Shown here: piece by piece, positions 5,019 through 64,000 of the stretch | Position numbering within the stretch: position 1 is the first letter of the stretch | Layout: each line of letters begins with the position of its first letter | From: an uncultured Rhodanobacteraceae bacterium | GTDB lineage: Bacteria > Pseudomonadota > Gammaproteobacteria > Xanthomonadales > SZUA-5 | Assembly (NCBI GenBank): GCA_937928755.1 | Contig: CALEZI010000117.1 | Location: 21,541 to 85,540, forward strand | Direction of reading: 5' to 3' | DNA length: 64,000 nucleotides | Position numbers and translations under genes: made by a program | Notes under the pieces: model-generated | What the model saw: only the letters and a program-made list of their open reading frames with translations | Told to the model about the DNA's origin: nothing | Databases searched by the model: none

Positions 5019-5021
5019 GTC

Positions 5022-5951: not shown

Positions 5952-5952
5952 T

Positions 5953-6015: not shown

Positions 6016-6088
6016 CGGATTGTCACGGATGTCCAGCTTTGCCGCCGCGGTGTAGTTTCGCCTTTCCCGCAAGCGCCGCCGGAACCCG

Positions 6089-35748: not shown

Positions 35749-36741
35749 TCAACCGTAATCCAGCGGTTTCGCCGGACCGCGAAACACGCTGTAGGTGTAA
35801 GCCGAATAGCCGAGGATCATCGGCAGCGTCACAGCCACCCCGAACAGGATGATCCACAGCGATCCGCTCGCCGCCGCCGCCTGATGGATGGTGATGCGAT
35901 CGACCACCAGATACGGGTACAGGCTGTAGGCGAGACCTGCGAAAGCACTGGTGAACAATCCGACCGCGCAGGCGAAGGGCAGCTTCGGCGCACCGCTGAT
36001 GCCACCTGACAACCGGCGCAGGGATCGATCTGCCAACAACACCAGCGCCACGCTGGCCAGGGGTATCGGCATCAGCAACAGAAAGTTGGGCAGCGCGAAC
36101 CACTTGTCGAAGATCCGCGCACTGACCAGCGGCGTGGCGATCGACACCCCGGCAATGCCGAACGCGGTCAACCACAACGCCACGCGCGCCCAGCGCACCG
36201 CCTTCGCCTGCAGTTCGCCGCCGGTCTTCAGCATCAACCAGGTGGCGCCAAGCAGGCTGTAGCCCGCCAGCAGGCAGACACCGATGAAACCGGCGAAGGT
36301 GAAATTGGCGAGGCTCCACTCGAAGCCCAGAATGTAGGCGCCGAGCATGAAGCCCTGCGACAGCGCGGCGAGCGCCGAACCGGCGAAGAATGCGCGGTCC
36401 CACAGATGCTTGTGTTGCGCGCGCGCCTTGACGCGGAAGTCGAAAGCCACCCCGCGCAGGATCAGCGCAATCAGCATCAGCGTGACCGGCATGTAGAGCG
36501 CGCCGAGAATGACGCCATGAGCAACCGGAAAGGCGATCAGCAGGATGCCGACACCGAGCACCAGCCAGGTTTCGTTGGCATCCCAGAACGGTCCGATCGA
36601 CGCGATCATCAGGTCCTTCTGCGCCTCGTCGGCGCCGGGCAGAAGGATGCCCACGCCAAGGTCGAAGCCATCCAGGATCACGTAGGCGAACATCGCCACG
36701 CCCATCAGTGCCATGAAGATTTCCGGCAACCAGGCGCTCAT
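35749..36741 (-). CDS. cydB: cytochrome bd-type quinol oxidase subunit II
   Basis: N-terminal FAYVILDGFDLGVGIL...IGPFWDANETWLV is diagnostic. A 4-nt overlap links it to subunit I. Confidence 0.9.
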   Translation of the reverse strand: MSAWLPEIFMALMGVAMFAYVILDGFDLGVGILLPGADEAQKDLMIASIGPFWDANETWLVLGVGILLIAFPVAHGVILGALYMPVTLMLIALILRGVAFDFRVKARAQHKHLWDRAFFAGSALAALSQGFMLGAYILGFEWSLANFTFAGFIGVCLLAGYSLLGATWLMLKTGGELQAKAVRWARVALWLTAFGIAGVSIATPLVSARIFDKWFALPNFLLLMPIPLASVALVLLADRSLRRLSGGISGAPKLPFACAVGLFTSAFAGLAYSLYPYLVVDRITIHQAAAASGSLWIILFGVAVTLPMILGYSAYTYSVFRGPAKPLDYG

Positions 36742-47921: not shown

Positions 47922-49430
47922 TCAGCCGCAGGGTCGCCACAGGACATACGGGCCGTGGTCGCGGAACAGCCCCAAGCGCCACAACATTGGCGACGGCACC
48001 GGACGCGGCACCAGATCGGGAGACACCGATCGCCCCTGCGCATCGATCCATTCACCTGGGCAATAGCCGGCACCCCGCAACTTGTCGTCGAGATCGTCGA
48101 CCAGCACCCAGGTGCCGGTCGAATCGATCGCGCGAATCACGACATCCGGAGCGAATCGCTTGAGCCACAGGAGCACCTGGTCCCCGCCATCGCCTGGGTA
48201 GGAGCGCACCATGCGCAGGCCATGGGAACGGCCGCTCTCGTAGAAATCCCAGCTGTAATCGGCCACGGCGGTACCAGCGGGCAGTTCACTCAACCAGGTC
48301 TGTCGGGGTGCGATGCGGACCTCGTTGACCAGGGCAAACCCGACTCGCAACACCATCAGCGCGATCGCAACGCCTACCGCAACCACCAGGTACCGCCGCC
48401 AGGCGTCGACCTGAAGCGAACTTCGACTCTGTCCTATCAGCAACGCCGTCGCAGCGACGCAGTACATCAGCAGGTAGGGAATGCGAAACGGATAAAAGCC
48501 ACTGGCGAAAATCAGGCAAATGCCGGTGAACAGCATCAGCGCCACCCAACGCGGGCGAATCAACATCAGGGCAACAAAGCCCGGAAGCACCAGGAACAGA
48601 CTGACCGCCAGCAACGACGGAATACTGCGCAGCGAGTCCCACGAGGTCCACGCCGTGAACAACGGATTCGACGCGTGAGCCTGCCGCACCGACCAGATAT
48701 GAGCAATGTCGATGGTCGCCAGTACCACCAGTATTGGCACTCCGAGAAATGCCGCCGACGCCTTGCCCGGAGCGGCGCCGCTGCGTCGCAGGCGAATCCA
48801 GTTCCACAGCCAGTGCGATGCCAGCAGCGGACCGAGCAGCACTGCGCTGATCCAGACCGAAGGCGCAAACGCGCATGCGGCATAACCGATGGCGACCAGC
48901 GTCCAGCCCGGGCGCGCCGCGAGCACCCGCGCGCCGCCAATGTCGGCAAGCAACAGGCCGCCGATCGCAAAAAACAGCGCCAGGGCGTCTGGTCGCCCCA
49001 GCACGACCGACTGGGCCAGCGTCGGATCCAACAGGACCGCTGCAGCCAGCAGCAGCGCCAAGCCGGTTCCCAAGCCGTGGTTCCTGGCCAACCGAAAGAT
49101 TGCTGCGGCCACCAGCATCATTGCCAGAATGCTCAGCCAGCGGAAGGCGACCACGCTTGCGCTCAGCCGAAACAGCAACTCGGACAGGATCGGACCGAAC
49201 CAGGCGACGATCCTGAGCGAGGTGCCGTCGGCGAACATGTACATCGAATGGGTCGTCGATGGATCGAGCAATACCCGGCCCCATTCGATCAACCAGATCT
49301 CGTCGATGAATACGCGCGTTCGCCACGCCAACCAGCCGGCAACGCACAGATAAAGCGCGCCGCCGAGCCCGATCGGCAGCGACCACCGTGGCGAATCTGG
49401 CGCCGGCGGCGCCCAGGTGCCTGCCGTCAC
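47922..49430 (-). CDS. polytopic membrane protein, GT-C-like (ArnT/PMT_2-like) glycosyltransferase candidate
   Basis: The GTG at 49430 is preceded by GGAGGA. There are about 11-12 hydrophobic helices, a DE pair in the first loop (VFIDEIW), and a C-terminal soluble domain. The longer track ORF (to 49862) would overlap the pmm gene. Confidence 0.55.
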   Translation of the reverse strand: MTAGTWAPPAPDSPRWSLPIGLGGALYLCVAGWLAWRTRVFIDEIWLIEWGRVLLDPSTTHSMYMFADGTSLRIVAWFGPILSELLFRLSASVVAFRWLSILAMMLVAAAIFRLARNHGLGTGLALLLAAAVLLDPTLAQSVVLGRPDALALFFAIGGLLLADIGGARVLAARPGWTLVAIGYAACAFAPSVWISAVLLGPLLASHWLWNWIRLRRSGAAPGKASAAFLGVPILVVLATIDIAHIWSVRQAHASNPLFTAWTSWDSLRSIPSLLAVSLFLVLPGFVALMLIRPRWVALMLFTGICLIFASGFYPFRIPYLLMYCVAATALLIGQSRSSLQVDAWRRYLVVAVGVAIALMVLRVGFALVNEVRIAPRQTWLSELPAGTAVADYSWDFYESGRSHGLRMVRSYPGDGGDQVLLWLKRFAPDVVIRAIDSTGTWVLVDDLDDKLRGAGYCPGEWIDAQGRSVSPDLVPRPVPSPMLWRLGLFRDHGPYVLWRPCG

Positions 49431-49485
49431 TGATCCTCCCGCGCGTTCATCCGCTCGCGCTTGCGCAGCCCGAGCCCGTGAGCCC

Positions 49486-50874
49486 TCAGTGCCCCGCCCC
49501 GACGTGCGCATCCGGCTTGACCGCCAGGACCTGCGCCATGAACTGCGCCTGGATGCGCGCCAGTGCCTCCGGCGTGTGGCCTTCGAAGCGCAGTACCAGC
49601 ACCGGGGTGGTGTTGGAGGCGCGCACCAATCCAAATCCGTCGGCGAATTCGGCACGCAAGCCATCGATGGTGATGACTTCCAGGGCACCCTCGAACGTCG
49701 CCGTCTGGCGCAGCTTCTCCACCAGCGCGTGATGCTCACCCTCGGCGCACGAGATGTTGAGTTCCGGGGTGCTGAAGCTGGTCGGCAATGCGTCGAGCAC
49801 GGCGCTCGGATCCGCTGATCGACTGAGGATTTCGAGCAGGCGCCCGGCGGTGTAAGTGGCATCGTCGAAGCCGTACCAGCGCTCCGAGAAAAAGATGTGG
49901 CCGCTCATTTCGCCGGCCAGCGGTGCGCCGGTTTCCTTAAGGCGCGCCTTGATCAGCGAGTGCCCGGTCTTGTACATCTCTGGAACGCCACCCGCCTCGC
50001 GAATTGCCAATGCCAGGCGCTGACTGCACTTGACGTCGAAAATGATGCGACCTCCGGGCACCCGCGACAGCACGTCGCGCGCAAACAGCACCAACTGGCG
50101 ATCGGGGAAAATGTTGTTGCCCTGGCGCGTCACCACCCCGAGGCGGTCGCCGTCGCCATCGAAGGCCAGACCCAGATCGGCGCCGCCGGCCGCGACCGCC
50201 GCGATCAGGTCGACCAGGTTTTCCGGCTTGGACGGGTCGGGATGGTGATTGGGGAAATCGCCGTCGACCTCCGAGTACAGTTCGGTCACCTCGCAGCCGA
50301 GCGCGCGCAGGATGCCGGGCGCAGACGCTCCCGGGATGCCGTTGCCGGAATCAACCACGATCTTCAGTGGGCGCGCCAGTTGGATGTCGCCGACGATGCG
50401 CGCGGTGTATTCGGCAAGCACATCGAGCTGCGTGTGGCCGCCCTGCCCGCTGGCATAGTCCTCGGTTTCGATGCGCGCGCGCAGGCCCTGGATGTCGTCG
50501 CCATAGATCGCCTTTCCGGCCAGCACCATCTTGAAGCCGTTGTAATCCTTGGGATTGTGGCTGCCGGTCACCTGGATGCCGCTGCGACAACCGATGTCGC
50601 CGCGAGTGGCCGCTACGTAGTACAGCATCGGCGTGGTTACCGCACCGAGCTCGATCACGTCGATGCCGCTGGCGCGCAGGCCCTTGATCAGCGCCGCGCT
50701 CAGGGACGGGCCAGATATGCGCCCGTCACGGCCGATGGCCACTGCGCGTTCGCCGAGCTTGAGCGCTTCGGTGCCGAATGCGCGCCCGAGATGCTCGGCG
50801 AAAGTTTCGTCGATCGTCTTGCCGACTACGCCACGAATGTCGTAAGCCTTGAAGATGGAAGCGTTGACGTGCAT
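49486..50874 (-). CDS. algC: phosphomannomutase/phosphoglucomutase
   Basis: FKAYDIRGVVG, the active-site TGSHNP.DYNGFK, metal-binding FDGDGDR, GEMSGH, and the C-terminal RASNTTPVLVLRFE. Colinear with P. aeruginosa AlgC. Confidence 0.9.
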   Translation of the reverse strand: MHVNASIFKAYDIRGVVGKTIDETFAEHLGRAFGTEALKLGERAVAIGRDGRISGPSLSAALIKGLRASGIDVIELGAVTTPMLYYVAATRGDIGCRSGIQVTGSHNPKDYNGFKMVLAGKAIYGDDIQGLRARIETEDYASGQGGHTQLDVLAEYTARIVGDIQLARPLKIVVDSGNGIPGASAPGILRALGCEVTELYSEVDGDFPNHHPDPSKPENLVDLIAAVAAGGADLGLAFDGDGDRLGVVTRQGNNIFPDRQLVLFARDVLSRVPGGRIIFDVKCSQRLALAIREAGGVPEMYKTGHSLIKARLKETGAPLAGEMSGHIFFSERWYGFDDATYTAGRLLEILSRSADPSAVLDALPTSFSTPELNISCAEGEHHALVEKLRQTATFEGALEVITIDGLRAEFADGFGLVRASNTTPVLVLRFEGHTPEALARIQAQFMAQVLAVKPDAHVGAGH

Positions 50875-51024: not shown

Positions 51025-52803
51025 TCAACGTACGACGCCAGAGACTGCACCTTCGAAACCATCCGAAAACATCGGTGCGGCGTAGCGGACATCCAGAAAT
51101 GGCCGCGCGCTGCCGAGCACTTCGGCAATGCCGCGGTGCTGCAGCACGCTGCCGGTGACGCTGCGCGAACGGAGGGTTCCGTCGGGCTGCAACTCGTCCA
51201 CCACATCGACCGTTTCGGCAAATTCGGCGGGCGCCAGCAGCGCATCGCCATCCTTGAAGGCGACGCGATGAACGCCGGCATCCACCGTCGTGAACGCGAG
51301 CCGGAACTGGGTCAGCCCACTGCGGTTGATCGCCGCCAGCCCCGCAGGCGTCAGATCGACCCGCCAGGCGTAGTACTCGGCAGCCGCGCTTCCGACGAAA
51401 CAGCCGACATCCTGTGCATCGGCATCGGCCGTGGCGTCGCCGGGCTCGACTTCCGGCGCACCGAAGCTTCCAGTGGCCACATCGAGACGCGGCGGGCCGA
51501 GATTGCCGGCGGTGATCGGATTGGTTCCGCTGCGCGATTCCTGCAGCAGGTAGAGGCTCGCCGAGACGATCTCGGCGCCATCGGGAACGGCGCTGGTATC
51601 GATGGACACGATGCCGCGGGTCAGGCGCACACCGTCGTCGCCGACGATCACCGCGTTGGTGCCGCTGGCGACGCCGTCGGCCCAGCCGTCGAAGGCCCCG
51701 CCCTGCGATGGCAGGCTGGCCGAAATCTCACCACGAAACCGCGGAAAAAAGTGGGTTTCCGCCTGTACGCCGACCTTGTAGAGATAACCCTCGGCATCGA
51801 GATGGATTGGATCGGCCGAGATTCCCGAGTTCAGGCGAAAGTTCTCGCGCAGACTCGGTCGCGCCGGATTGCCGGCCGGGAACGGCAAGTAGGCGGGCGC
51901 CAGTTGCCCCGGTCGCGGCAGGATGCCGGCGGCTGTCTGGCCATCGCCGTAGTAGTGGTGCATCTCGCCGACGCCGTGATCGAAGGCCAGTCGCGGATCG
52001 CCGTTGGTCCAGGCCATGCGCCGCGTTTCGACATCCAGATTCATCGCATTGATCTCGGCGTCGGTCACCAGCGCATTGGCGGGATCGCGGCTGAGGTCGT
52101 TGCGCTTGGGGCAGGCGTAGATCCAGCACCACAGCGGCGACACGTTGAAATTGGGGTATTCGTAACTGGAAATGATGACGTCGATCTGCGGGCGGACGTT
52201 GACGAACGACTGCGCGATTGCGTCGCTGTGCTGCAACACGCGAGCGAACAGCGCCTCTTCCGCTCCCGGCACGTCGAGGTCCATGTCCTTGTACCAGCCG
52301 CCACCCGACCTGCCCGCCAGAATGTCATTGCCGCCGATGCTGAGAACCACGCTGTCGATGCTGGGAAGCGCCTGCAATTCGGATACCACGTTTGCCGCCC
52401 ACGGATAACTGGCGCCATTGACCCACTCGCGCGCCTCGCTGCCTGATATCGCGTACTCGGGACCGCTGTAACCGGGCCCGGGATTGCTGCCGAGCGAGCG
52501 ACTGACAGCGCGTTTGTCGGCATGCCCGAACTTGTCGAAGACCTCGTTGTGCGCATCGTCGTCCCACATGAACTGCGCCCAGCTGTCGCCGGCGATCAGC
52601 ACGCGTGGAAGCGGCGCGGTAACTGCGCATGCCCCCGCTATGGCCGTCGGCCGCTGGGCACGTTCGCGAACGCCCGAGTAGTTCCACGGATAGGTCCCGC
52701 CGCGCACCGCCGGCGCACTGACGGATGCATCGGTCGCTGCCACCGGGTTGGCCGATGCCAGCGCAATCACCACCAGCAAACACCGATGTGCGGTCAGGGA
52801 CAT
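51025..52803 (-). CDS. secreted SGNH/GDSL-family hydrolase with a large C-terminal domain
   Basis: Signal peptide MSLTAHRCLLVVIALASA, block I VLIAGDSWAQF, block III SIGGNDIL. An alternative start lies at 52830. Confidence 0.65.
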   Translation of the reverse strand: MSLTAHRCLLVVIALASANPVAATDASVSAPAVRGGTYPWNYSGVRERAQRPTAIAGACAVTAPLPRVLIAGDSWAQFMWDDDAHNEVFDKFGHADKRAVSRSLGSNPGPGYSGPEYAISGSEAREWVNGASYPWAANVVSELQALPSIDSVVLSIGGNDILAGRSGGGWYKDMDLDVPGAEEALFARVLQHSDAIAQSFVNVRPQIDVIISSYEYPNFNVSPLWCWIYACPKRNDLSRDPANALVTDAEINAMNLDVETRRMAWTNGDPRLAFDHGVGEMHHYYGDGQTAAGILPRPGQLAPAYLPFPAGNPARPSLRENFRLNSGISADPIHLDAEGYLYKVGVQAETHFFPRFRGEISASLPSQGGAFDGWADGVASGTNAVIVGDDGVRLTRGIVSIDTSAVPDGAEIVSASLYLLQESRSGTNPITAGNLGPPRLDVATGSFGAPEVEPGDATADADAQDVGCFVGSAAAEYYAWRVDLTPAGLAAINRSGLTQFRLAFTTVDAGVHRVAFKDGDALLAPAEFAETVDVVDELQPDGTLRSRSVTGSVLQHRGIAEVLGSARPFLDVRYAAPMFSDGFEGAVSGVVR

Positions 52804-52864
52804 CAGGCGGGATCTCGCGCAAATCGGCACCCGAGCATAACAACGTTGACCGTTTCGCCTGCCG

Positions 52865-53902
52865 TCAATGGCGCTTCAACACCCGCGGCTCGATCTCCAG
52901 CTCCACCCCGAAACGCGCCTGCACATCGACCTGGATGCGTCGCGCCAGCGCCAGGATGTCGCGACCGCTGGCGTTCCCGTAGTTGACCAGCACCAGCGCG
53001 TGCTGCTGGTGCACGCCGGCATCGCCGTCGCGGAAACCCTTCCAGCCGCAAGACTCGATCAGCCAGCCGGCAGCGAGCTTGGCCTGTCCGCGTCCAGCCG
53101 GATACAGCGGCAGGCCGGGGTATTCGGCCTTGAGCCCTTCCACGCGGTCGAGCGACAGCAGCGGATTCTTGAAAAAGCTGCCGGCATTGCCGAGCGTCGC
53201 CGGATCCGGCAGCTTGCGACGACGGATTGCGGCCACCGCGTGGAAGACGTCGACCGGCGCCGGCCTCGATACATCCATCGCCCGCAGTTCTTCACGCAAG
53301 CCGGCGTAATCGAGCCGCAATTCCGGCGTGCCGGACAGCGCAAATTCGACGGCCACGATCAGATGGCGTCCGTTTTCGTGCTTGAAGCGACTGTCGCGGT
53401 AGCTGAATCCGCAATCGGCGGCCTCGATGCGAACGAAGCGTCGCTCGACGCGATCGAACGCTTCGACCGCGACAACGAAACGCTCGAGCTCGACCCCGTA
53501 GGCGCCGATGTTCTGGATTGGCGCCGCGCCGACATTGCCGGGAATCAGCGCCAGGTTTTCCAGGCCGAACGCGCCGCGATCGAGCGTGGCGCCGACGAAC
53601 GCGTGCCAGTTCTCGCCGGCTGCGGCGCGCACCCGGATCCACCCGTCATCGCCCTGCCCGCGCCATTCAATGCCGCGCAATTGCGGCTGCAGCACCAGCG
53701 CATCGAGGTCGTCGACGATCAACACGTTGCTGCCGCCGCCGAGCACCTCCACTGGCAGACCCTCGCGATCGGCGTAGTCGAGTGCCGCCATCAGGCCTTC
53801 ATGCGAATCGATCCGCGCCAGCGCCCGCGCACGCGCCGCGACACCGAAACTGTTCAGCGGTCGCAGGTCGGCGTTGGGGGTGAGCGTGAAGGGTCTGGTC
53901 AT
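52865..53902 (-). CDS. murB: UDP-N-acetylenolpyruvoylglucosamine reductase
   Basis: L..LNSFG....A, the FAD-binding LGGGSN.L, GAAPIQNIGAYGVE, and the C-terminal GSFFKNP motifs of MurB. Confidence 0.9.
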   Translation of the reverse strand: MTRPFTLTPNADLRPLNSFGVAARARALARIDSHEGLMAALDYADREGLPVEVLGGGSNVLIVDDLDALVLQPQLRGIEWRGQGDDGWIRVRAAAGENWHAFVGATLDRGAFGLENLALIPGNVGAAPIQNIGAYGVELERFVVAVEAFDRVERRFVRIEAADCGFSYRDSRFKHENGRHLIVAVEFALSGTPELRLDYAGLREELRAMDVSRPAPVDVFHAVAAIRRRKLPDPATLGNAGSFFKNPLLSLDRVEGLKAEYPGLPLYPAGRGQAKLAAGWLIESCGWKGFRDGDAGVHQQHALVLVNYGNASGRDILALARRIQVDVQARFGVELEIEPRVLKRH

Positions 53903-53944
53903 CGCTCGTCGCTGTTCCGGGCGAATGCTGAAGAGGAGCAATCC

Positions 53945-54068
53945 TTATCCGCAAAAGACGCAAAAGACGCAAAGGACGCAAAGAAAGCAGGAACGCGAAC
54001 AGTGGCCATGTAACTTTCCCTGCTCCCCTTTGCGTCCTTTGCGTCCTTTGCGTCCTTTGCGGACAAAA
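53945..54068. repeat. family-A k-mer-arm hairpin element (best-preserved copy)
   Basis: ATCCGCAAAAGACGCAAAAGACGCAAAGGACGCAAAGAAAGCAGG ... CCTGCTCCCCTTTGCGTCCTTTGCGTCCTTTGCGTCCTTTGCGGAC, with a loop of about 28 nt. Confidence 0.9.
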
Positions 54069-54112
54069 CAGAAGGGTCGACGAGCGATCAACGCGCGGGT
54101 CTGCTCGCGTAC

Positions 54113-55138
54113 CTACCCACGCGCCCGCAGCGCCTCGACGCATTCGCCGATCAGCTCCGGGCCGCGGTAGATCATGCCGCTGTAGAACTGCACCAGTTGC
54201 GCTCCGGCATCGAACTTGGCCGCCGCGTCGACGCCGCTCAGGATGCCGCCAACGCCGACGATCGGCACGCGTGCGCCGATGCGTTCGTGCATGCCGCGTT
54301 GTACCTCGGTGGAGCGCGCCATCAGCGGCCTGCCCGACAGGCCGCCGGCTTCGCTCGCCAACGGGTGCCCAGCGATGACGTGGCGATCGATGGTGGTGTT
54401 GGTGCAGATCAGCCCGTCGATGCCGGAAGCCAGCAGCACCTCGGCGATGCCATCCATCTCGTTCATGGTCAGGTCGGGCGCGATCTTCAGCAACATCGGC
54501 TTGCGCTTTCCGTGCACGCCGGCCAGGCGCTCCTGGGCCTCGCGCAAGGTGCCGATGAAGCGCGCCAGCGCCTTTTCCTCCTGCAGGTCGCGCAGGCCTT
54601 CGGTATTCGGCGACGAGATGTTCACGGTGATATAGGTCGCCAGCGGATACACGCGCTGCAGGCACGCAAGGTAGTCATCGACTGCACGCTGGTTCGGCGT
54701 GTCCTTGTTGCGACCGATGTTGATGCCAAGTACGCCCTGGAAGCGGCTGCACTCGATGTTGCGTACCAGCGCATCCACTCCCTGATTGTTGAATCCGAGG
54801 CGATTGATCACCGCCTGGCGATCCGGCAGACGGAACATGCGTGGCTTGGCGTTTCCCGGCTGCGGGCGCGGCGTGATCGTGCCGACTTCGATGAAGCCGA
54901 AGCCGAGCGACCCCAGCGCATCGATGTGCGCCGCATTCTTGTCGAGCCCCGCTGCCAATCCGACCGGGTTCGGGAAATCGATGCCGAATACGCGTGTCGG
55001 CAAAGGCTGCGGGCGCGTGGCGAGCAACGGGTTCAAGCCGCTGCGGTAAGCCAGTTCGATCGCCTTCAGGCCCAACTCGTGAGCACGCTCGGCGTCGAGG
55101 GCGAACAACAACGGCTGCGCGAGGCGATAGAGCGACAT
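54113..55138 (-). CDS. pyrD: dihydroorotate dehydrogenase (quinone), class 2
   Basis: [40 protein letters not shown], and GGLSG.P, colinear with E. coli PyrD. ATG at 55138. Confidence 0.9.
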
Positions 55139-55143
55139 CGCGA

Positions 55144-55668
55144 TCAGTTGCCCAAAGGCTTGGCGTAGACCTCGAACCACAGGTCCTGACGCTTGGGAAG
55201 TCCGAATCGTTCGTCGCCGTAGGGAAACGGTGCACGCTCGCCGGTCGCCGTGTAACCGCGCCGCTGATAAAAGGCGATCAGCTCGCTACGCGTCCAGATC
55301 ACCGTCATGCGCACGCTGCCCACCTTCCAGCTTGCCGCAAGGCGCTCACATTCGCGCAGGATGGCATCGCCGATGCCCTGTCCCTGCAGGCCAGGTCGCA
55401 CCGCGAACATGCCGAAGTACGCCGCATCGCCCTGCCGCTCCAGATTGGCGCAGCCCAGCAACTCGCCATCGCGCTCCGCCAGCACGATGACCGAGCCATC
55501 CTTGTCGATGGTGGCGCGCAGCCCATCGCAATCCGTCCGCTGGCCATCGAGCAGATCGGCCTCGGTGGTCCAGCCCTGGCGACTGGCGTCGCCGCGATAA
55601 GCGGACTCGACCAGTTCCAGCAGGGCGGGAATGTCGTCGTGCGTGGCGGGGCGGAAGGCGAGGGTCAT
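55144..55668 (-). CDS. GNAT-family N-acetyltransferase
   Basis: The acetyl-CoA motif A is present ([17 protein letters not shown]), and at 174 aa the size fits the family. ATG at 55668. Confidence 0.75.
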
Positions 55669-55718
55669 GGGAGTGGGGTTGGTTCGGTGCGGACGGAGGT
55701 GGCGGGTGGCGGGGGGAA

Positions 55719-55830
55719 GTGAAACGTTAAATGTCAAACGTCAAACGTCAATTGAAAAGCACGGCGGGCAGCGCTTTTCGTTTCACGTTTCACGTTTCAC
55801 GTTTCACACCTTTCACCTTTCACGTTTCAC
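55719..55830. repeat. k-mer-arm hairpin element, type B (7-mer GTGAAAC/GTCAAAC arms)
   Basis: Left arm GTGAAACGTTAAATGTCAAACGTCAAACGTCAATTGAAAAGC, a 12-nt loop, and right arm GCTTTTC(GTTTCAC)x4 ACCTTTCACCTTTCACGTTTCAC. The right arm overlaps the last codons and the stop of ispG. Confidence 0.8.
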
Positions 55831-57091
55831 CAATGCTTGCCTCACGACTTCCGATCACCGGGTACTTCGCCGCCACGTATGCCTCGATCATCCCCACAAA
55901 CTCCTCGCTGATGCGCTCGCCGCGCAGGGTCGCCACCTTGACGCCATCGATGAACACCGGGGCCGCGGGACTTTCGCCGGTGCCGGGCAAGCTGATGCCG
56001 ATATTCGCCTGTTTGCTCTCGCCGGGCCCGTTGACGATGCAGCCCATCACCGCGAGGGTCAAATCCTCCACGCCGCGATGCCGCAGGCGCCATTCGGGCA
56101 TGCGCGCGCGCACATGGTCTTGCACCGTCTTGGCCAGTTCCTGGAAGAAGCTGCTGGTGGTGCGGCCGCAACCCGGGCAGGCGGTGACCATCGGCGTGAA
56201 CGCGCGCAGTCCCATGGTCTGCAACAACTCCTGGGCGACGATCACTTCGGTGCTGCGGCTTTCGCCGGGCTCGGGCGTCAGCGAAATGCGGATGGTGTCG
56301 CCGATGCCTTCCTGCAGCAGCACCGCCAGCGCCGCGGTGGAGGCGACAATGCCCTTGCTGCCCATGCCGGCCTCGGTCAGGCCAAGGTGCAAGGGATAAT
56401 CGCTGCGACGCGCCAGCTCACGGTAAACGGCGATCAGCTCCTGCACCCCGCTGACCTTGCACGAGATGACGATCCGATTGGCCGGCAGGCCGATTTCCTC
56501 GGCCTTCGCCGCGCTCAGCAGTGCCGACTGGATCAGCGCCTCGCGCCCGACCGCTGGCGCATCGAGCGGATGCGATGCCTGGGCATTGTGATCCATCAGG
56601 CGCGTCAGCAGGGCCTGATCCAGGCTGCCCCAGTTGGCACCGATCCGCACCGGCTTGTCGTATCGGCAGGCCTGTTCGACGATTGTCGCAAACTGCGTAT
56701 CGCGCTTCTGCCCGAAGCCGACGTTGCCCGGATTGATCCGGTACTTTCCGAGCGCCTGGGCGCAATCCGGATAGCGCGTCAACAAGGTGTGCCCGTTGTA
56801 ATGAAAATCGCCGATCAGCGGCACCGATACCGACATCCGATCAAGCTTCTCGCGGATGCGCGGTACGGCAGCGGCAGCCTCGTCGGTATTGACCGTGATC
56901 CGAACCAGTTCCGAGCCGGCACGCCACAACTGCGCGACCTGGCGCGTCGTCGCATCGACGTCGGCGGTGTCGGTATTGGTCATCGACTGCACGACGACCG
57001 GCGCGCCGCCGCCGACCTGCGTCGAGCCGATCTGCACGGCGACGGTATGGCGGCGGGGATGGGAGCCGTACGAGGGTAGCGAAGAAGTCAT
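55820..57091 (-). CDS. ispG: 4-hydroxy-3-methylbut-2-en-1-yl diphosphate synthase
   Basis: [16 protein letters not shown]......[13 protein letters not shown], the cluster ligands CPGCGRT, and [12 protein letters not shown] at 57091. Confidence 0.9.
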
Positions 57092-57095
57092 TTTT

Positions 57096-57292
57096 GAGAA
57101 GCGGGGCAAGGGGCAGGGGGCAAGGGAAATGGCGCAAAGCTTCGTTTGCAGCGTTGTCGCGGACCGGAGGCTCTGAACGGCACGTGCCCCGCGCAAGGTC
57201 TCAGGCTTGGCGCCCGAAATCGCACGCCGCGACGGTGCCCGTGCATGGCGCAACGGCTGGTCCCCTGCCCCCTGCCCCCTGCCCCGCTCTTC
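57096..57292. repeat. k-mer-arm hairpin element, type C (7-mer GGGGCAG/GGGGCAA arms)
   Basis: The 32-nt arm GAGAAGCGGGGCAAGGGGCAGGGGGCAAGGGA (57096-57127) pairs with TCCCCTGCCCCCTGCCCCCTGCCCCGCTCTTC (57261-57292). The arms are 28/32 complementary, with a 133-nt loop. Confidence 0.8.
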
Positions 57293-57356
57293 ACAGCCTC
57301 GACCTCGTCAACTGAAGTTCCACGCGCGCCTTGATGTCTACCGCGCGCATCACCCC

Positions 57357-59090
57357 TCACACCGTCGACCAGATCTCGTCGAGTTCAGCCGCAGGCGGCG
57401 CTTCCGGTGCCTCGAGCGAGCGACCGGAAATCGGCATGTTGCCGTAGCGGAATTGTTTGTAGGCTCCGGTGTTTTCCAGCAGCTCGAGTGCTTCCAGCGG
57501 CTCGGACAACACGCGAACTTCCATGCCGGTTGAATCGGGCAGACGCAACAACTCAAGGCCGCCGGTCGAATCCAGGATCGATGGAGCCAGCAAGGTCGGA
57601 TGCTGGCTGCCGTCGATCGCCAGTGGCGCCAGCAACAGACCGCGCAGGATCACGCGGCTGGTATGCGCCTCACCGGTGGCGCGAACGGCAACGGCCTCGA
57701 CACGACGGCTGAGCAACTGAACGCCGGCTTCCAGGCTGTCGTTGTTGCCGCCCTTGAGCCAGCGCAGAACTCCAACCATCCAGTCCGGCTGGTCGTCCGC
57801 GTCCTGCGCCGGCGTCGACAATGCCACCAGTTCTCCGACCTTGGCCTTCAGTCCATCGGCGTTCTCCCAGAACAACCGGTAGCCGCCAAGGCTCTGATCG
57901 ACGACGCGCACACGCAGCGGCAACGGCACTGCAGCATCCGAACTGGATTGCGCCCAAGCCGCAGAGCGGTCGCGATCGCTGAGCGTGACCCCGCCGCCCA
58001 GTTCCGATACGAATTCGTTGAAATCGCGCTGTTCGGCAGCCAGGTAGTGCACCGCATGCAGGCCTATGCAGGTGTTCATCAGGTGATTTGCGGGCAGCCG
58101 CGGATGACCCCGTTCGCCGCTGAAACTCCACGCCACGCTGAGTTTTTCGACCACCTCGCCGGACACCTCCGGCCCTTGGCCCAGGCGACCACGCACCGCG
58201 ATCGGGGCGTCGATCGCCGGCAGCACCCGCAACTGATTCTGCAGCGACTGTACCAAACCGCTGCTGTCCAGACGCCAGTAGGGGCCGTCGATCTCCGCGC
58301 GCGGCGACATCGGCGGCGCATCCGAGCGCGGATCGATGACGAACGACCCGATCGCGCCCTTGTGATCGATCTTGCAGTGCGTCGACCAGATCTTGGCGGC
58401 CGCCTCGATGTCGACGATCTCTTTCTGCGTCAGTCGGTACGGATTGCCGATGAAGGTCAGCAGCGTCTGCAGATAGACGCTTTCCGGCGTCAGCGTGATG
58501 CCGGGCACCTGCGGGTCGGTGATTGCCTTGTCCGACAACTGCGCCTCATAGGCAAATCCGGCGAGCCGATGCAGCAAGCCCCAAACGCCAGCCGGAATTT
58601 CGCTGTAGGCGATGTAGCACTTGCTCAGCAATTGCGAGCAATGACTGAGTGCGCGCACCAGCGCCAGCGCCGTGCTGCGGCCGCGCAGGAAAGGCACGCT
58701 GCCGCGCGGGGCGCAATAGTCGTGCACGCAGATCGCGAAACCGAGCGCCAGCTCGCGATGGAAGTCGCGCATCACCGCGCCGATCTGGCGCTTCTGCAGC
58801 GGCAACGGCAACGGCTGTCCGAGCACGTGACGTTCCATGCTGGAAATCACCACCGCCACCGGGTGACGCATCTGCTCGAGTATCTCGACGCGCTGGTTGG
58901 GCTCGACATCCAGCTGGTTGAGTTCCTTCAAGCCGTTGTAGAGCAGGCGGGCGGTGGCGCCGCTGTTGGCCATCGGCAGCGCCTCGATCCACGCCTTGAC
59001 GGCCTTGCCAGTCGTCGGAAACGCATCACGACCGGGTCGCTCGCGCCTGGGAAGTGCCCCCCTGAGCAACTCGAACGCGCTTTCGGCCAT
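57357..59090 (-). CDS. hypothetical 577-aa protein with a C-terminal PilZ-like beta-barrel (possible c-di-GMP receptor)
   Basis: ATG at 59090. The C-terminal third contains LRVRVVDQSLGGYRLFW...GELVAL....WMVGVLRW, which resembles the D.S..G strand pattern of PilZ domains. A canonical RxxxR is not obvious. Confidence 0.5.
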   Translation of the reverse strand: MAESAFELLRGALPRRERPGRDAFPTTGKAVKAWIEALPMANSGATARLLYNGLKELNQLDVEPNQRVEILEQMRHPVAVVISSMERHVLGQPLPLPLQKRQIGAVMRDFHRELALGFAICVHDYCAPRGSVPFLRGRSTALALVRALSHCSQLLSKCYIAYSEIPAGVWGLLHRLAGFAYEAQLSDKAITDPQVPGITLTPESVYLQTLLTFIGNPYRLTQKEIVDIEAAAKIWSTHCKIDHKGAIGSFVIDPRSDAPPMSPRAEIDGPYWRLDSSGLVQSLQNQLRVLPAIDAPIAVRGRLGQGPEVSGEVVEKLSVAWSFSGERGHPRLPANHLMNTCIGLHAVHYLAAEQRDFNEFVSELGGGVTLSDRDRSAAWAQSSSDAAVPLPLRVRVVDQSLGGYRLFWENADGLKAKVGELVALSTPAQDADDQPDWMVGVLRWLKGGNNDSLEAGVQLLSRRVEAVAVRATGEAHTSRVILRGLLLAPLAIDGSQHPTLLAPSILDSTGGLELLRLPDSTGMEVRVLSEPLEALELLENTGAYKQFRYGNMPISGRSLEAPEAPPAAELDEIWSTV

Positions 59091-59171
59091 AGGTCCAACT
59101 CCCTTCCCCTGGGCCGTGCATGATAACCCGCCGGCGACCCACCTCGAAGTTTTTGCGGTCAATGCGCGTGG

Positions 59172-59217
59172 CCCGATTGCGGCCGACCCGGTTGCATACC
59201 TACACTCCGCAATCGGG
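59172..59217. promoter_or_regulatory. 11-bp perfect inverted repeat CCCGATTGCGG-N24-CCGCAATCGGG in the divergent promoter region
   Basis: Located 24 nt upstream of the ATG at 59241, between the divergently transcribed 57357-59090 and 59241-61640 genes. Confidence 0.3.
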
Positions 59218-59240
59218 GATCAGCCACAGGCGGAACAACG

Positions 59241-61640
59241 ATGTCGGACATCGTCGAAATCGCAATCGTCGGCTCGGGGCCGGGCGGCATCAGTGCCGCT
59301 GCTCGTGCCGCCGAACTCAAAGTGTCGCACGTGTTGCTGGAAGCTGCGCCGCACCTGTCGAACACGATCTTCCGCTATCAGAAAGGCAAACACGTGATGG
59401 CCGAGCCCGAGGCTCTGCCGTTGCGCTCGCCGCTGACCTTCAGCGCCGGCAGTCGCGAATCGATCCTCGAGGCCTGGGACCAGGGCGTCGCCAGCCTCGC
59501 GGTGAACGTGCGCCATGGCGCAGAGATCACGGCGATCAAGAAGCTGGATGACCACTTCGAACTCAGCATCGGCCGCAAGGACAAGCTGCTGGCGCGCAAT
59601 GTGGTACTCGGCATCGGCCTGCAGGGCAACATCCGCAAACTGGGCGTACCCGGCGACGACGCGCCCTTTGTCCAGTACACCCTCGACGATCCAGACGAAT
59701 ACGAAGGCGAGACCATCATCGTGGTCGGCGCCGGCGACGCCGCGATCGAAAACGCCGTGGCGCTGGCCAGGCAGAATCAGGTCGTGGTGGTCAACCGCCG
59801 CGAGGAATTCGCACGCGCCAAGGAAGGCAACCTGCGCGCCATCAGCAAGGCCATCGAGGACGGCGTGATCGAGTGTTACTTCGGCGCTGCGCCAGAACGC
59901 GTCGACAAACTCTCGGTCGGCCGCAAGCCGGGTCGACTGATCCTGAACACGCCCAAGGGCCGCGCCCAGGTGCTCTGCGACCGCATCATCGGTCGCCTCG
60001 GCGCCAACCCGCCGCGCGCCTTCGTCGAGGCCTGCGGCGTGGTGTTTCCGAATGCCGATCCATCGGCAGTGCCGGCGATCAGCGCCAAGTACGAGAGCAA
60101 CGTGCCCGGCCTCTACATCGTCGGCGCCCTCGGCGGTTATCCGCTGATCAAGCAGGCGATGAACCAGGGCTATGAGGTGGTCGAGTACATCCTCGGCCGC
60201 AGCGTGGAGCCCGCCGACGAGCCACTGCTGCGCGCCAAGTTCCAGAGCATGCCAGGCTTCAGCTCAGTCGGCGCGGCGCTGGAGAAGGTGCAGTCGGCGG
60301 TGCCCTTGCTGGCGACCATCACGCCGCTGCAGTTGCGCGAATTCATGATCGATTCGGATATCCGCACACCGAAATCCGGGGAGATTCTGTTCAAGCGCAA
60401 CGACTACACCAACAGCTTCTACTGCATCGTTGCGGGACAGGTCGAGATTCTGGTCGACGAGGCGGCAGGCAAGCGCGTGGCACTCGGCCCCGGCGAGTTT
60501 TTCGGTGAGATGAGCCTAATCTCGGGGCGTCGTCGCAGCGCCACGGTTTTCGCTGGCGCCAACTGCGTGCTGATCGAAACCCCGCGACGGTCGATGACCA
60601 AACTGATCAACTCGGTCGACGCGGTCAAGAAGCTGGTCGACCGCACCTTCGTCGAACGTGCCATCCGCGCGCGCTTTGGCGACGAGGCGACCGTCGCGCA
60701 GATCAAGGAGGTGGTATCGGGCGCCTCGCTGCAGCGCTTCAAGGCCGGCGAGGTCCTGTTCCGCGAGGGCGACGACGGCGATTGTCTGCACCTCGTTCGC
60801 GTCGGATCGTTGACCATTTCCAGGTCGATCGGCGGTCGCGACATCGTCCTGTCCTACGTACCCGCCGGCAACTACGTCGGCGAAATGGCGATCATCGGCG
60901 GCAGCAAGCGTTCGGCGACGGCGAAGGCTGCGGTCGCGACCGAGACCATTCGCGTCGAGCGCGACGCATTTCGCAAGCTGCTCGGTCAGAATCCGCTGTT
61001 GCGCGCGAAGCTGGCGCAGGAGGTCAAACAACGCACCGCCGAGAACATCACCATGCAGGCGGCCGCCTCGGGCGGCGACATCATTTCCTTCCTCGTCGGA
61101 CAGGGCCTCGGCGAGGCCACCGACGTGCTGTTGATCGACGAGTCCTTGTGCGTGCGCTGCGACAACTGCGAGAAGGCCTGCGCCGAAACCCACGGCGGCA
61201 CCTCGCGACTGGATCGAGAAGCCGGGCCGACCTTTGCCAACGTGCACGTGCCGACCTCCTGCCGACACTGCGAGCACCCGCACTGCATGAAGGATTGCCC
61301 GGCGGACGCCATTCACCGCGCACCCAACGGCGAGGTCTACATTGCCGACAACTGCATCGGCTGCGGCAATTGCGAACGCAACTGCCCGTATGGCGTCATC
61401 CACATGTCGGCCAAACCGAAGAAGAAGCCGGGACTGCTGCAATGGTTGTTGCTCGGTGCCGGCCCTGGCCCCGGCGAGTCGCCTTATGACCCCGACAGCC
61501 ACGAAAAGAAAGCGGTCAAGTGCGATATGTGCAAGGACATCAAGGGTGGTGCCTCATGCGTGCGCGCCTGCCCGACCGGCGCGGCGATCCGCATCAGCCC
61601 GGAACAACTGCCTGAATACGCCTTTGCTCGGGGGCCGTGA
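59241..61640 (+). CDS. multidomain redox/signalling protein: FAD/NAD(P)-binding reductase + two cNMP-binding domains + 4x[4Fe-4S] ferredoxin domain
   Basis: IAIVGSGPGGISAA and IIVVGAGDAAIENA dinucleotide folds. Two CAP-type cNMP motifs (FFGEMSLISGRRRSATV, YVGEMAIIGGSKRSATA). Four Cys clusters (CVRCDNCEKAC, CRHCEHPHCMKDCP, CIGCGNCERNCP, CDMC...CVRACP). Confidence 0.8.
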   Translation: MSDIVEIAIVGSGPGGISAAARAAELKVSHVLLEAAPHLSNTIFRYQKGKHVMAEPEALPLRSPLTFSAGSRESILEAWDQGVASLAVNVRHGAEITAIKKLDDHFELSIGRKDKLLARNVVLGIGLQGNIRKLGVPGDDAPFVQYTLDDPDEYEGETIIVVGAGDAAIENAVALARQNQVVVVNRREEFARAKEGNLRAISKAIEDGVIECYFGAAPERVDKLSVGRKPGRLILNTPKGRAQVLCDRIIGRLGANPPRAFVEACGVVFPNADPSAVPAISAKYESNVPGLYIVGALGGYPLIKQAMNQGYEVVEYILGRSVEPADEPLLRAKFQSMPGFSSVGAALEKVQSAVPLLATITPLQLREFMIDSDIRTPKSGEILFKRNDYTNSFYCIVAGQVEILVDEAAGKRVALGPGEFFGEMSLISGRRRSATVFAGANCVLIETPRRSMTKLINSVDAVKKLVDRTFVERAIRARFGDEATVAQIKEVVSGASLQRFKAGEVLFREGDDGDCLHLVRVGSLTISRSIGGRDIVLSYVPAGNYVGEMAIIGGSKRSATAKAAVATETIRVERDAFRKLLGQNPLLRAKLAQEVKQRTAENITMQAAASGGDIISFLVGQGLGEATDVLLIDESLCVRCDNCEKACAETHGGTSRLDREAGPTFANVHVPTSCRHCEHPHCMKDCPADAIHRAPNGEVYIADNCIGCGNCERNCPYGVIHMSAKPKKKPGLLQWLLLGAGPGPGESPYDPDSHEKKAVKCDMCKDIKGGASCVRACPTGAAIRISPEQLPEYAFARGP

Positions 61641-62536
61641 CGATGCATGACTCGATTCTCGATTACCGCGGCTTCCGCTACCTCTGGGTGGCGCTGATCC
61701 TGTCGATCGGATCGATCGTCGCCTATGTCTGGCATGACCCGATAGGCGTGCCCAATGGCGGGTCCTGGCTCGGCTACACGCTCGGCACCATCGGCGCCCT
61801 GCTGATCTTGTGGCTGCTCTGGTTCGGTATCCGCAAGCGCCGTTATTCCGGCGGCAGCGGCACCGCTCGCGGCTGGTTGTCGGCGCATGTATACCTCGGC
61901 ACCACGCTGATCCTGATCGCGTTCCTGCATGCCGGCTTCCAAGTCGGCTGGAACATCCACACGCTGGCGCTGGTCTTGATGCTGCTGGTGATCTTCAGCG
62001 GCTTTTTCGGCGTTTATGCGTACTTGCGCTATCCCGCGATGATGACGCGCAATCGCGCCGACACCACGCGCGACGCGATGCTCGCCGAGATTCGCGAACT
62101 CGACCAGCAGACCCTGCAGCTCGCCGACAAGGTCGACAAGAGCATCCACGACGCCATTCTGAGCTCGATTCAGCACACCCAACTCGGCGGTGGTGTCTGG
62201 ACGCAACTGAGTGCGCGCGACGACTCCGGATTGGCTCTGGCCAAGCTCAAGGAAGCCGTACTCAAGTCGGAAACCGGGGAAAAGTCATCGAAATCCGGTC
62301 AGACCATGGTGATGATGGTCGATTTCCTCGCCAACCAGGCCACCGATGCACAATCGGAAAACCTGCGCAGACTGATCGATCTGGTCTCGCGCAAGCGCGC
62401 CCTGGCAGCGCGCGTCGCGCGCGACATCCAACTCCAGGCGCTGATGGAAATCTGGCTCTACATCCATGTCCCGCTGTCGCTCGGATTGCTCGGTGCGCTG
62501 ACGGCGCATGTGGTGGCGGTGTTTTTTTATTGGTGA
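61637..62536 (+). CDS. integral membrane protein with conserved His residues in TM helices (possible haem-b electron-transfer subunit)
   Basis: An ATGA overlap links it to the upstream gene. Four N-terminal TM helices contain WLSAHVYLG, IAFLHAGF and NIHTLAL, followed by a soluble helical segment and a C-terminal TM helix. Confidence 0.6.
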   Translation: MTMHDSILDYRGFRYLWVALILSIGSIVAYVWHDPIGVPNGGSWLGYTLGTIGALLILWLLWFGIRKRRYSGGSGTARGWLSAHVYLGTTLILIAFLHAGFQVGWNIHTLALVLMLLVIFSGFFGVYAYLRYPAMMTRNRADTTRDAMLAEIRELDQQTLQLADKVDKSIHDAILSSIQHTQLGGGVWTQLSARDDSGLALAKLKEAVLKSETGEKSSKSGQTMVMMVDFLANQATDAQSENLRRLIDLVSRKRALAARVARDIQLQALMEIWLYIHVPLSLGLLGALTAHVVAVFFYW

Positions 62537-62537
62537 T

Positions 62538-62660
62538 GAAGCGGGAAAAGGGGAAATGGAAAATGGAAAAGGGAAAGGCAACAGCAATGCGCGGGCGCAA
62601 GTCGCACTCTTCGCACCTCCTTTTTCCTTTTTCCTTTTTCCTTTTTCCCCTTCCCCGCCC
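62538..62660. repeat. k-mer-arm hairpin element, type D (7-mer GGAAAAN / CCTTTTT arms)
   Basis: Left arm GAAGCGGGAAAAGGGGAAATGGAAAATGGAAAAGGGAAAGG, and right arm CCTCC(TTTTTCC)x4-like run ending CCCCTTCCCCGCCC. It shares the terminal GAAGCGGG motif with type C. Confidence 0.8.
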
Positions 62661-62684
62661 TGACTCGGCCGAGGATCGCGCGCC

Positions 62685-64000
62685 ATGAAATGGTTCATTC
62701 GCCGCGTCATCAAGAAGGGCAAAGGCAGCCTGCAGTTCGAGGAAGAAATTCACTTCGGCGAGACGCTGACCGTTGGCCGTGCCGCCAATCAGGCCATTTT
62801 CATCAACGACCTGCGTGCCGCACTGGAGCATGCCCGCGTCGTCGCGCTGGGTAACGGTCGTTATCGTGTCGAGTCGCTGGTCGCCTCCGGAATACGCATC
62901 GATGGTCGCTTCGAGCACGCCGCGACGGCCACTTCCGGCTGCACCCTCGAAATTGGCAACGTGCGCATCACGCTGGTGGACCCGCCTGCCGACTTTGAAG
63001 CTGCGGTGGAAGTCGGGTTGGTCGACAAGGCTGAAGTCGCCGCGCGCGAAATATCCGAAGCGCTGCCGCAGTCATTGGCCGAAGCGGGACTTGGCAAACG
63101 CAAGCTGGCTTGGACTTTGCTGCTGCTGACGCTCGCATTCGGGCTGTTGTTGCCCGTTGCCGCGCATTTCGTCCCCACCTTCCGAGCGATCACCAAGGAC
63201 GTTCCAGCCGTCGGACTCAACGCTTGGGACAGTGGTCCACTGGCAGCCGCCCACCACACCATGGCGAACGATTGCCAGAGTTGCCACGGCGAGCCGTTCA
63301 ACGTGGTCGCCGACGACAAATGCATCGTCTGTCATGCGGGCACTGCCGCGCATGCGGATCCGGTGAAATATCCGTTGCCGGACATCGCCGATGCCCGCTG
63401 CGCACATTGCCATCGCGATCACAACGGCGACGACGGCCTGGTGCGCGCCGATCAGGAACTCTGCAGCGACTGCCATCGCAACCTGAGCGAACGCGTCAAC
63501 GGCGACACACTGCTGGTCGATGTGTCCGATTTCGGCAGCAACCACCCGCAATTCAAGATTCTGCTGCCGGCGTGGGATGCGCAGGGACGGTATCAGCCGG
63601 AACGGGTCAGCATGGACCAGATTCCGTTGACCGAACGCTCCGGCCTCAAGTTCCCGCATTCAAAACATCTGCCTGCCGCAGGCTTGAAGACTCCCGATGG
63701 CGTGCGCGTGCTCGACTGCGTCGATTGCCACAAACCCGAGCCGGGCGGTGCGCTGATCGCGCCGATCAATTTCGAACTGCACTGCCAGTCGTGCCATCGC
63801 ATTGATTTCGACCTGCGCATGCCGGACCGCCAGGTGCCGCACGGGAATGCCGCCGAAGTGCAGTACATGCTCGACGAGTTCTATTCCAAGGTCGCGCTGG
63901 AAGGCGGATACGACGACGTTCAGGCACCGGTGACGGTGCGCCAGCGCAGGCGCCCTGGCGAGGCGCCGCCCAATGCTCAGGAGCAACGCGAAGCACTGGC
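62685..64000 (+). CDS. FHA-like domain / single TM helix / multihaem c-type cytochrome, 3'-partial (not in the supplied ORF track)
   Basis: I translated from the ATG at 62685 and found no stop to the window end (438 codons). N-terminal LTVGRAANQAIFINDLRAALEHARVV..GNGRYRVE...GIRIDGR....LEIGNVRITL is FHA-like. TM helix WTLLLLTLAFGLLLPVAA. Six CxxCH motifs follow: CQSCH, CIVCH, CAHCH, CSDCH, CVDCH, CQSCH. Confidence 0.75.
   Translation, partial: MKWFIRRVIKKGKGSLQFEEEIHFGETLTVGRAANQAIFINDLRAALEHARVVALGNGRYRVESLVASGIRIDGRFEHAATATSGCTLEIGNVRITLVDPPADFEAAVEVGLVDKAEVAAREISEALPQSLAEAGLGKRKLAWTLLLLTLAFGLLLPVAAHFVPTFRAITKDVPAVGLNAWDSGPLAAAHHTMANDCQSCHGEPFNVVADDKCIVCHAGTAAHADPVKYPLPDIADARCAHCHRDHNGDDGLVRADQELCSDCHRNLSERVNGDTLLVDVSDFGSNHPQFKILLPAWDAQGRYQPERVSMDQIPLTERSGLKFPHSKHLPAAGLKTPDGVRVLDCVDCHKPEPGGALIAPINFELHCQSCHRIDFDLRMPDRQVPHGNAAEVQYMLDEFYSKVALEGGYDDVQAPVTVRQRRRPGEAPPNAQEQREAL

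Follow-up and report, generated by a model that had tools for sequence, protein, structure and literature searches.

The last open reading frame (ORF) in a 64,000-nucleotide (nt) stretch of contig CALEZI010000117.1, from an uncultured Rhodanobacteraceae bacterium (hereafter, the window), covers the first 438 codons of a 570-codon gene for a decahaem c-type cytochrome that is anchored in the inner membrane and carries an FHA-fold domain at its cytoplasmic N terminus. This FHA-cytochrome is the third gene of a widespread, conserved and uncharacterised operon, in which it follows genes for a flavo-iron–sulfur protein and for a membrane protein with four invariant histidines. We read the operon as a regulated transmembrane electron conduit, with a probability of about 0.6, in which the FHA domain would be an accessory and probably phospho-independent docking or regulatory module. 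A first-pass annotation, made from the sequence by a model, had described the ORF as an FHA-like domain fused to a multihaem cytochrome and had proposed that it couples Ser/Thr-kinase signalling to electron transfer; it missed the surrounding operon, the main clue to what the protein does.

An anchored decahaem cytochrome and its FHA-fold domain

Translation from the ATG at 62685 on the + strand, which lies 9 nt downstream of a Shine–Dalgarno-like GAGGA read from the sequence (62671–62675), gives 438 stop-free codons up to the window edge at 64000, as the first-pass annotation had found by hand. The ORF was missing from the list of ORFs supplied with the window, and the guess made at the time was right: the list leaves out ORFs that run off the source sequence. 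The motifs quoted then were all recovered, namely VGRAAN at residues 30–35, ALEHA at residues 46–50, the helix WTLLLLTLAFGLLLPVAA at residues 143–160 and six CXXCH motifs starting at residues 197, 213, 239, 260, 345 and 367. Window positions 52000–64000 have a counterpart of 100% identity, over 12,001 bases, in the metagenome contig L085, on which the gene extends 397 bases past the window end (to L085:12755) and reaches its stop at 570 amino acids (aa), with four further CXXCH motifs that bring the total to ten. The intact 570-codon gene on this identical contig rules out a pseudogene or a frameshift. Because the reading frame continues intact on L085 and because more than 100 homologues carry ten CXXCH motifs at matching positions, the ORF is not a chance occurrence.

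The assignment of the N-terminal domain (residues 1–112, 62685–63020, + strand) to the FHA fold is borne out by structure prediction, fold comparison and sequence profiles. Its AlphaFold2 model has a predicted local distance difference test (pLDDT) score of 92.9 and consists of 11 strands in a β-sandwich. All 50 matches listed by Foldseek against the PDB are FHA domains, each with a probability of 1.0 (41 at E ≤ 0.001; best E = 5.9e-6), and a family profile of the domain, searched against the PDB, picks out the FHA domains of GarA (the best match, at 2.4e-5), OdhI and Rv1747. The window protein itself scores under the 20.7-bit gathering cut-off of Pfam FHA (PF00498), with 14.3 bits for the full ORF and 16.6 bits for the domain alone. 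The same family is matched at E ≤ 1 by 27 of the 27 relatives tested, the best at 7.1e-7; 25 of these 27 show a weak match to Pfam Yop-YscD_cpl, and many distant members of the family already carry a precomputed PF00498 match. The fold assignment from the model and the profiles is sound, and the predicted binding site is non-canonical.

Three binding-site residues, Gly31, Arg32 and His49, do not vary within the clade of the window protein and are found in 141, 130 and 113, respectively, of 142 representatives of 50%-identity clusters. The positions previously described as altered are Ala46, which takes the place of the phosphothreonine-contacting Ser of the SxxH motif, and Ser68, which takes the place of the Asn of the NG motif. 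The change holds family-wide. Position 46 is invariantly Ala within the clade and, across the 142 representatives, is Ala in 76, Pro in 15, Leu in 12, Ser in 9 and Gly in 6; position 68 is mostly Ala, Ser or Gly (Ala 47, Ser 24, Gly 22, Thr 11 and Asn 7). As judged from this alignment, the phosphothreonine-contacting residues have been lost across the whole family, which is new information.

The domain is followed by a helix (residues 115–124) and a juxtamembrane linker with conserved E117, P128 and L131 and a basic patch, GKRK (63021–63110, + strand), and then by a single transmembrane (TM) helix at residues ~143–163 (63111–63173, + strand). The TM helix is the sole hydrophobic segment of the protein, with a Kyte–Doolittle maximum of 2.31 at residue 145, and no signal-like segment was seen at the N terminus. 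Lys and Arg are in excess on the N-terminal flank of the helix in 210 of 256 family members, and the reverse bias occurs in 5. Covalent haem attachment is Ccm-dependent and takes place in the periplasm. The charge bias, the single TM helix and the periplasmic site of haem attachment thus place the FHA domain inside and the haems outside, and the N-in, C-out topology predicted in this way agrees with the one proposed at first, including the probable periplasmic location of the haem domain.

The part of the multihaem cytochrome c domain that lies in the window (63174–64000, + strand) contains the first six of the ten CXXCH motifs, at 63273–63287, 63321–63335, 63399–63413, 63462–63476, 63717–63731 and 63783–63797. 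It matches Pfam Cytochrom_c3_2 (PF14537) with 28.9 bits, over the cut-off of 25. The ten CXXCH motifs and ten additional histidines are invariant among members that are ~30% identical, a pattern that fits bis-His ligation of ten haems, which the protein probably contains. A further histidine, His161, is nearly invariant and lies where the TM helix meets the periplasm.

A search for close homologues gave more than 388 matches. The best 120 of these are 47–90% identical to the window protein and 555–615 aa long, except for one truncated entry of 436 aa; nearly all of the full-length proteins among them have the ten CXXCH motifs at fixed positions, and their hosts are Lysobacterales such as Dokdonella, Rudaea and Pseudomarimonas. 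A profile search over 1.84 billion cluster representatives returned 4,832 matches at E ≤ 1e-3; with the threshold at E ≤ 1e-30, 1,390 50%-identity clusters remained. Coverage is full-length for nearly all of the top 150 profile matches, 145 of which have ten CXXCH motifs, and the distant named members come from Pseudomonadales, Alcanivoracaceae, Woeseiaceae, Arenicella and Sphingomonas sp. ERG5. Database names already in use are ‘cytochrome c3 family protein’ and, in UniRef, ‘FHA domain-containing protein’; JGI annotates some distant members as ‘Cytochrome c3/FHA domain’. The fusion, which had been called unusual, is therefore common and already named, and a 2026 preprint has flagged it. The family, though large and named, is uncharacterised.

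A conserved operon and its variants

The order oxidoreductase, membrane protein, cytochrome is present at nearly all of the 80 GTDB loci that have enough flanking sequence, and the same three-gene order recurs in ~30%-identical lineages with GC contents of 46–70%. None of the curated NCBIfam models fits any protein of the operon.

The first gene (59241–61640, + strand) encodes a 799-aa cytoplasmic flavo-iron–sulfur protein, as assigned from Pfam matches and motifs. It combines a thioredoxin reductase-like flavin adenine dinucleotide (FAD)/NAD(P)H domain, with GSGPGG at residue 11 and GAGDAA at residue 163 and without the redox CxxC, with two cyclic nucleotide monophosphate (cNMP)-binding domains, the phosphate-binding cassettes of which are intact, and with sixteen cysteines arranged in four [4Fe-4S] motifs (residues 637, 674, 705 and 761). 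The corresponding Pfam matches are cNMP_binding (6.6e-39), Pyr_redox_3 (1.3e-26) and Fer4 families.

The second gene (61643–62536, + strand; residues numbered from the GTG at 61637) encodes a 297-aa inner-membrane protein that is a candidate dihaem cytochrome b. The protein is 100% identical to protein P0121 and has five predicted TM helices, with a helical insert of ~135 aa between TM4 and TM5 that the positive-inside rule places in the cytoplasm. Two pairs of histidines, H84/H98 in TM3 and H277/H291 in TM5, are each spaced 14 residues apart and sit at matching membrane depths; none of the four varies in 74 sequences or in the distant loci L088–L091. Pfam Ni_hydr_CYTB, of the cytochrome b561 family, gives weak matches in 34 of 38 members (best 7.3e-6), seven homologues match DUF4405, and UniRef names one homologue ‘ferric reductase like transmembrane component’. 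Binding of two b-haems by this protein is, from its sequence, a well-motivated candidate function.

Three more genes lie just past the window end (L085:14218–20894; L001:13216–20765 at a related locus), and their products carry signal peptides or a lipobox. They encode an HbpS-like lipoprotein with three HbpS-like (GlcG) domains (found at 73 of 92 loci), a secreted protein of ~600 aa (67 of 92) and a secreted protein of ~1,290 aa with ten CXXCH motifs and LVIVD propeller repeats (59 of 92). The ~600-aa protein has a weak porin-like match and is possibly an outer-membrane protein. The ~1,290-aa LVIVD-decahaem protein is 63–76% identical across lineages, even where the FHA-cytochromes are ~50% identical or less. 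Some of the loci adjoin ccm genes, genes for Cytochrome_C554-like proteins or type II secretion genes.

Variants of the cytochrome show how its cytoplasmic part differs between lineages. Orthologues of 460–506 aa, for example in Arenicella sp. (L092:10001–11482 and L093:10001–11383), have no FHA domain; their N terminus lies ~20 residues ahead of the TM helix, and the juxtamembrane motif is retained. All six genes are kept, and these two loci adjoin type II secretion genes and genes for Cytochrome_C554-like proteins. In a 694-aa metagenome protein (P0375), a PilZ domain with intact cyclic di-GMP (c-di-GMP) motifs (REKER...NISRGG) precedes the FHA domain.

Our searches of the literature for FHA with multihaem or decahaem proteins, for LVIVD with multihaem proteins and for the NCBI product names found one relevant paper, a preprint of May 2026 on Ferrigenium straubiae; papers on Tenderiales and Gallionellaceae were considered and are not relevant. 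The preprint describes a protein, ‘NHC’, with an FHA domain in the cytosol, a single TM helix and a nonahaem part in the periplasm (bioRxiv 10.64898/2026.01.22.701106, section 6.3.2). Its gene neighbours encode a five-TM protein without a recognisable motif and a [4Fe-4S] protein, none of these proteins has a signal peptide, and the cluster adjoins nirK in this betaproteobacterial Fe(II) oxidiser; the authors state that FHA domains had previously been unreported with multihaem cytochromes and leave the function of NHC open (bioRxiv 10.64898/2026.01.22.701106). The layout and gene neighbours match those of the window operon, and we take NHC to be a homologue from this matching description rather than from an alignment, with nine haems reported there versus ten here. 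Absent from the preprint are the histidines of the membrane protein, the cNMP and FAD parts, the downstream LVIVD-decahaem genes and the size of the family. The present analysis adds the six-gene module, the cofactor inventory of the first gene, the four-histidine signature of the second, and the FHA-less and PilZ–FHA variants. The four-histidine pattern in a membrane protein described as motif-less is a concrete lead beyond the preprint.

Between the second and third genes lies a purine/pyrimidine hairpin with (CCTTTTT)x4 in its 3′ arm (62541–62658, + strand), which has a minimum free energy of −61.4 kcal/mol (z = −3.07 versus shuffled sequences) and is unique in the window. The closest relatives are the only ones with a hairpin at the same site, and a second copy occurs elsewhere in one related locus (L005:3126–3202); one possibility is that the operon contains a small RNA hairpin with a mobile or regulatory nature. 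Farther upstream, two + strand ORFs (55631–57079 and 57600–59123) were considered as additional genes and rejected as shadow ORFs, with no Pfam matches; the real genes, called on the identical contig, are on the − strand and encode GcpE/IspG (~55820–57091) and a FimW_N-domain protein (~57357–59090). The shadow ORFs still match relatives by tblastn. Elsewhere in the window, AT skew peaks of 0.25 (36001–38000) and 0.21 (48001–50000) exceed the rest, and large − strand ORFs lie at these peaks (36738–38087 and 47922–49862).

A proposed electron path and its alternatives

Taking the demonstrated reading frame, fold, haem motifs, topology bias, synteny and residue conservation as a basis, we infer haem b binding, complex formation, the direction of electron flow and the partner of the FHA domain as follows. 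NAD(P)H would reduce FAD, from which electrons would move on to the four [4Fe-4S] clusters of the flavo-iron–sulfur protein, gated by its two cyclic-nucleotide-binding domains. The clusters would hand them to two b-haems, bound by the four invariant histidines of the five-TM protein, for the passage across the membrane, and the b-haems would in turn reduce the ten c-haems of the anchored cytochrome. From there, electrons may reach the secreted ~1,290-aa decahaem/β-propeller protein, together with the HbpS-like lipoprotein and the ~600-aa possible outer-membrane protein. The direction would be outward, from the cytoplasm to the periplasm or cell surface, which redox potential and membrane potential would be expected to favour.

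The sequence comparisons argue against a place for the FHA domain in the redox core. Because the FHA-less orthologues keep all six genes, the domain is dispensable for the module, in which the PilZ–FHA variant and the cNMP domains represent other cytoplasmic signalling inputs. Most likely, the FHA domain would instead dock to or regulate a cytoplasmic partner, such as the flavo-iron–sulfur subunit or the insert of the five-TM protein, without phosphothreonine. Unphosphorylated GarA and OdhI bind their target enzymes without phosphothreonine, and YscD, a type III secretion protein with the FHA–TM–periplasmic layout, acts in a similar manner. The flavoprotein as an obligatory FHA partner is a weakened candidate, as FHA-less cytochromes keep the flavoprotein and some FHA-bearing loci are without it nearby.

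Several observations weigh against the conduit. The flavo-iron–sulfur gene is not within the flanking sequence at seven FHA-cytochrome loci (L022, L034, L035, L040, L045, L061 and L067); loci of this kind belong to Rhodanobacteraceae and Rudaea, and usually keep the membrane protein. The window membrane protein scores 14 bits against the Ni_hydr_CYTB cut-off of 30.1, no sequence match to it was found in the PDB, and its AlphaFold2 model is poor, with a fold search from that model finding nothing; the proposed haem b binding thus has the histidine pattern as its basis. For the Fe(II) oxidiser, the authors of the preprint favour inward flow to quinone. Arg32 is conserved, so that phospho-dependent FHA binding is possible in some lineages. 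Finally, at one distant locus (L091, 46% GC), the flavoprotein gene is immediately preceded, in the same orientation, by genes for a PP2C phosphatase and a tandem-FHA protein (4580–6541). This contig has 5x coverage, and its membrane-protein gene is split between two ORFs.

The conserved Arg32 and the upstream genes at L091 bear on the explanation closest to the first-pass annotation, in which the FHA domain is a working phosphothreonine reader and a pair of a Hanks-type kinase and a PP2C phosphatase switches the cytochrome, or the whole complex, on and off. The fold is a true FHA fold that conserves the phosphate-binding Arg32 together with Gly31 and His49, the solved structures nearest to it (GarA, OdhI and EmbR) come from proteins of kinase pathways, and in other lineages the domain passes the Pfam FHA model, with JGI naming it as a pSer/pThr-binding FHA protein. 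Against this, the contacting Ser is replaced by an invariant Ala in the clade and retained in 9 of 142 representatives, the Asn is retained in 7 of 142, and the window domain scores under the Pfam FHA cut-off. A scan of all ORFs of at least 200 aa in the 64-kb window for Hanks-kinase motifs found none, and tblastn with the PP2C and tandem-FHA protein found such neighbours at 1 of 92 related loci, namely L091. With the same operon present around FHA-less orthologues, hard-wired coupling to a Ser/Thr kinase does not hold as first proposed, and we regard a phosphothreonine-reading switch as unlikely.

A similarly doubtful explanation is that the cytochrome belongs to the CymA/NrfH type and acts as a quinol dehydrogenase or quinone reductase, with the TM helix and the proximal haem exchanging electrons with the quinone pool and the neighbouring proteins being unrelated or scaffolds. 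The overall plan, one TM helix plus a multihaem domain in the periplasm, is the same, the explanation is favoured in the preprint (bioRxiv 10.64898/2026.01.22.701106), and the nearly invariant H161 at the periplasmic end of the helix would suit it. No NapC/NirT or NrfH match was found at E ≤ 1 in Pfam or NCBIfam, however, and the deep linkage to a four-histidine membrane protein and an NAD(P)H/iron–sulfur protein is better explained by a quinone-independent path.

Least probable, and in our view improbable, is an inward module that serves lithotrophs for reverse electron flow, in which a donor outside the cell or in the periplasm would supply the electrons for cytoplasmic NAD(P)+: an NAD(P)-binding flavoprotein is reversible in principle, but movement from the positive to the negative side through a dihaem b would be opposed by the membrane potential, reduction of NAD(P)+ by haem c would be uphill, and most named hosts are Lysobacterales (Dokdonella, Tahibacter and Rudaea) that we take to be heterotrophs. 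The finding in its favour is the expression of a similar cluster in the Fe(II) oxidiser Ferrigenium (bioRxiv 10.64898/2026.01.22.701106).

The regulated outward conduit, with FHA as an accessory, has a more tentative extension. The whole six-gene module might form a quinone-independent, second-messenger-gated ‘long wire’ from NAD(P)H through FAD, four iron–sulfur clusters, two b-haems and about twenty c-haems to the cell surface, which we consider possible without expecting it. Both inner-membrane partners would bear signalling domains on the cytoplasmic side, the flavoprotein its cNMP domains and the cytochrome its FHA domain or, in some lineages, PilZ–FHA. If so, electron export would be switched directly by cAMP or cGMP, c-di-GMP or protein phosphorylation, and the long wire would represent a new class of regulated extracellular electron transfer that is widespread in aerobic soil and water Proteobacteria. 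The module differs from the well-studied conduits of Shewanella, Geobacter and sulfate reducers in that it would draw on NAD(P)H directly and has cytoplasmic signalling domains of three kinds. Well over 1,000 sequence clusters contain it across Gamma- and Alphaproteobacteria, including cultured Tahibacter, Dokdonella, Pseudomarimonas and Sphingomonas. Should the wire model hold, organisms that are not regarded as electroactive would share a common, regulated route for exporting reducing power, and the FHA–multihaem fusion flagged as unexplained in iron oxidisers would gain a function.

Comparison with known systems

The FHA domain has its best sequence and structure matches in GarA and OdhI, which are soluble regulators, unlike the window protein. 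In its order of parts, namely a cytoplasmic FHA domain, a single TM helix and a periplasmic domain, the window protein is the same as YscD, EscD and PrgH; it differs from YscD in being found outside a secretion-system context and in having, as its periplasmic part, a putative haem wire rather than a ring-building domain.

CymA and NrfH, of the NapC/NirT family, resemble the window protein in their one-TM inner-membrane anchor and in a multihaem domain on the periplasmic side, from which electrons pass to partners in the periplasm. Each is a tetrahaem protein that begins with its TM helix and lacks a cytoplasmic domain, whereas the window protein probably has ten haems and its TM helix follows a cytoplasmic domain of 140 aa. 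For the membrane step, a parallel is provided by the NADPH oxidase/ferric reductase (NOX/FRE) exporters, in which electrons pass from NAD(P)H to FAD and then to two TM b-haems on two histidine pairs ~13–14 residues apart, as proposed here. In the window operon, the flavoprotein and the predicted haem b protein are separate and would be linked by four iron–sulfur clusters, and the c-haems would extend the chain; no match to Pfam Ferric_reduct was found.

As a whole, the module looks like the known transmembrane conduits built from multihaem, cytochrome b and iron–sulfur proteins. The complexes of sulfate reducers and Geobacter (Hmc, Tmc, Nhc, DsrMKJOP and Cbc/CbcL) share with it the logic of a periplasmic multihaem cytochrome c, a membrane cytochrome b and an iron–sulfur protein for electron transfer across the inner membrane, although their subunits are different from and unrelated to those of the window operon: the NCBIfam model for HmcA gives 13–16 bits against a cut-off of 400, and the nine-haem model 14.8 against 640. 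Compared with these Hmc-type complexes, the iron–sulfur module here shares one polypeptide with an NAD(P)H flavoprotein and its cNMP domains, and the cytochrome c itself spans the membrane and bears the FHA domain.

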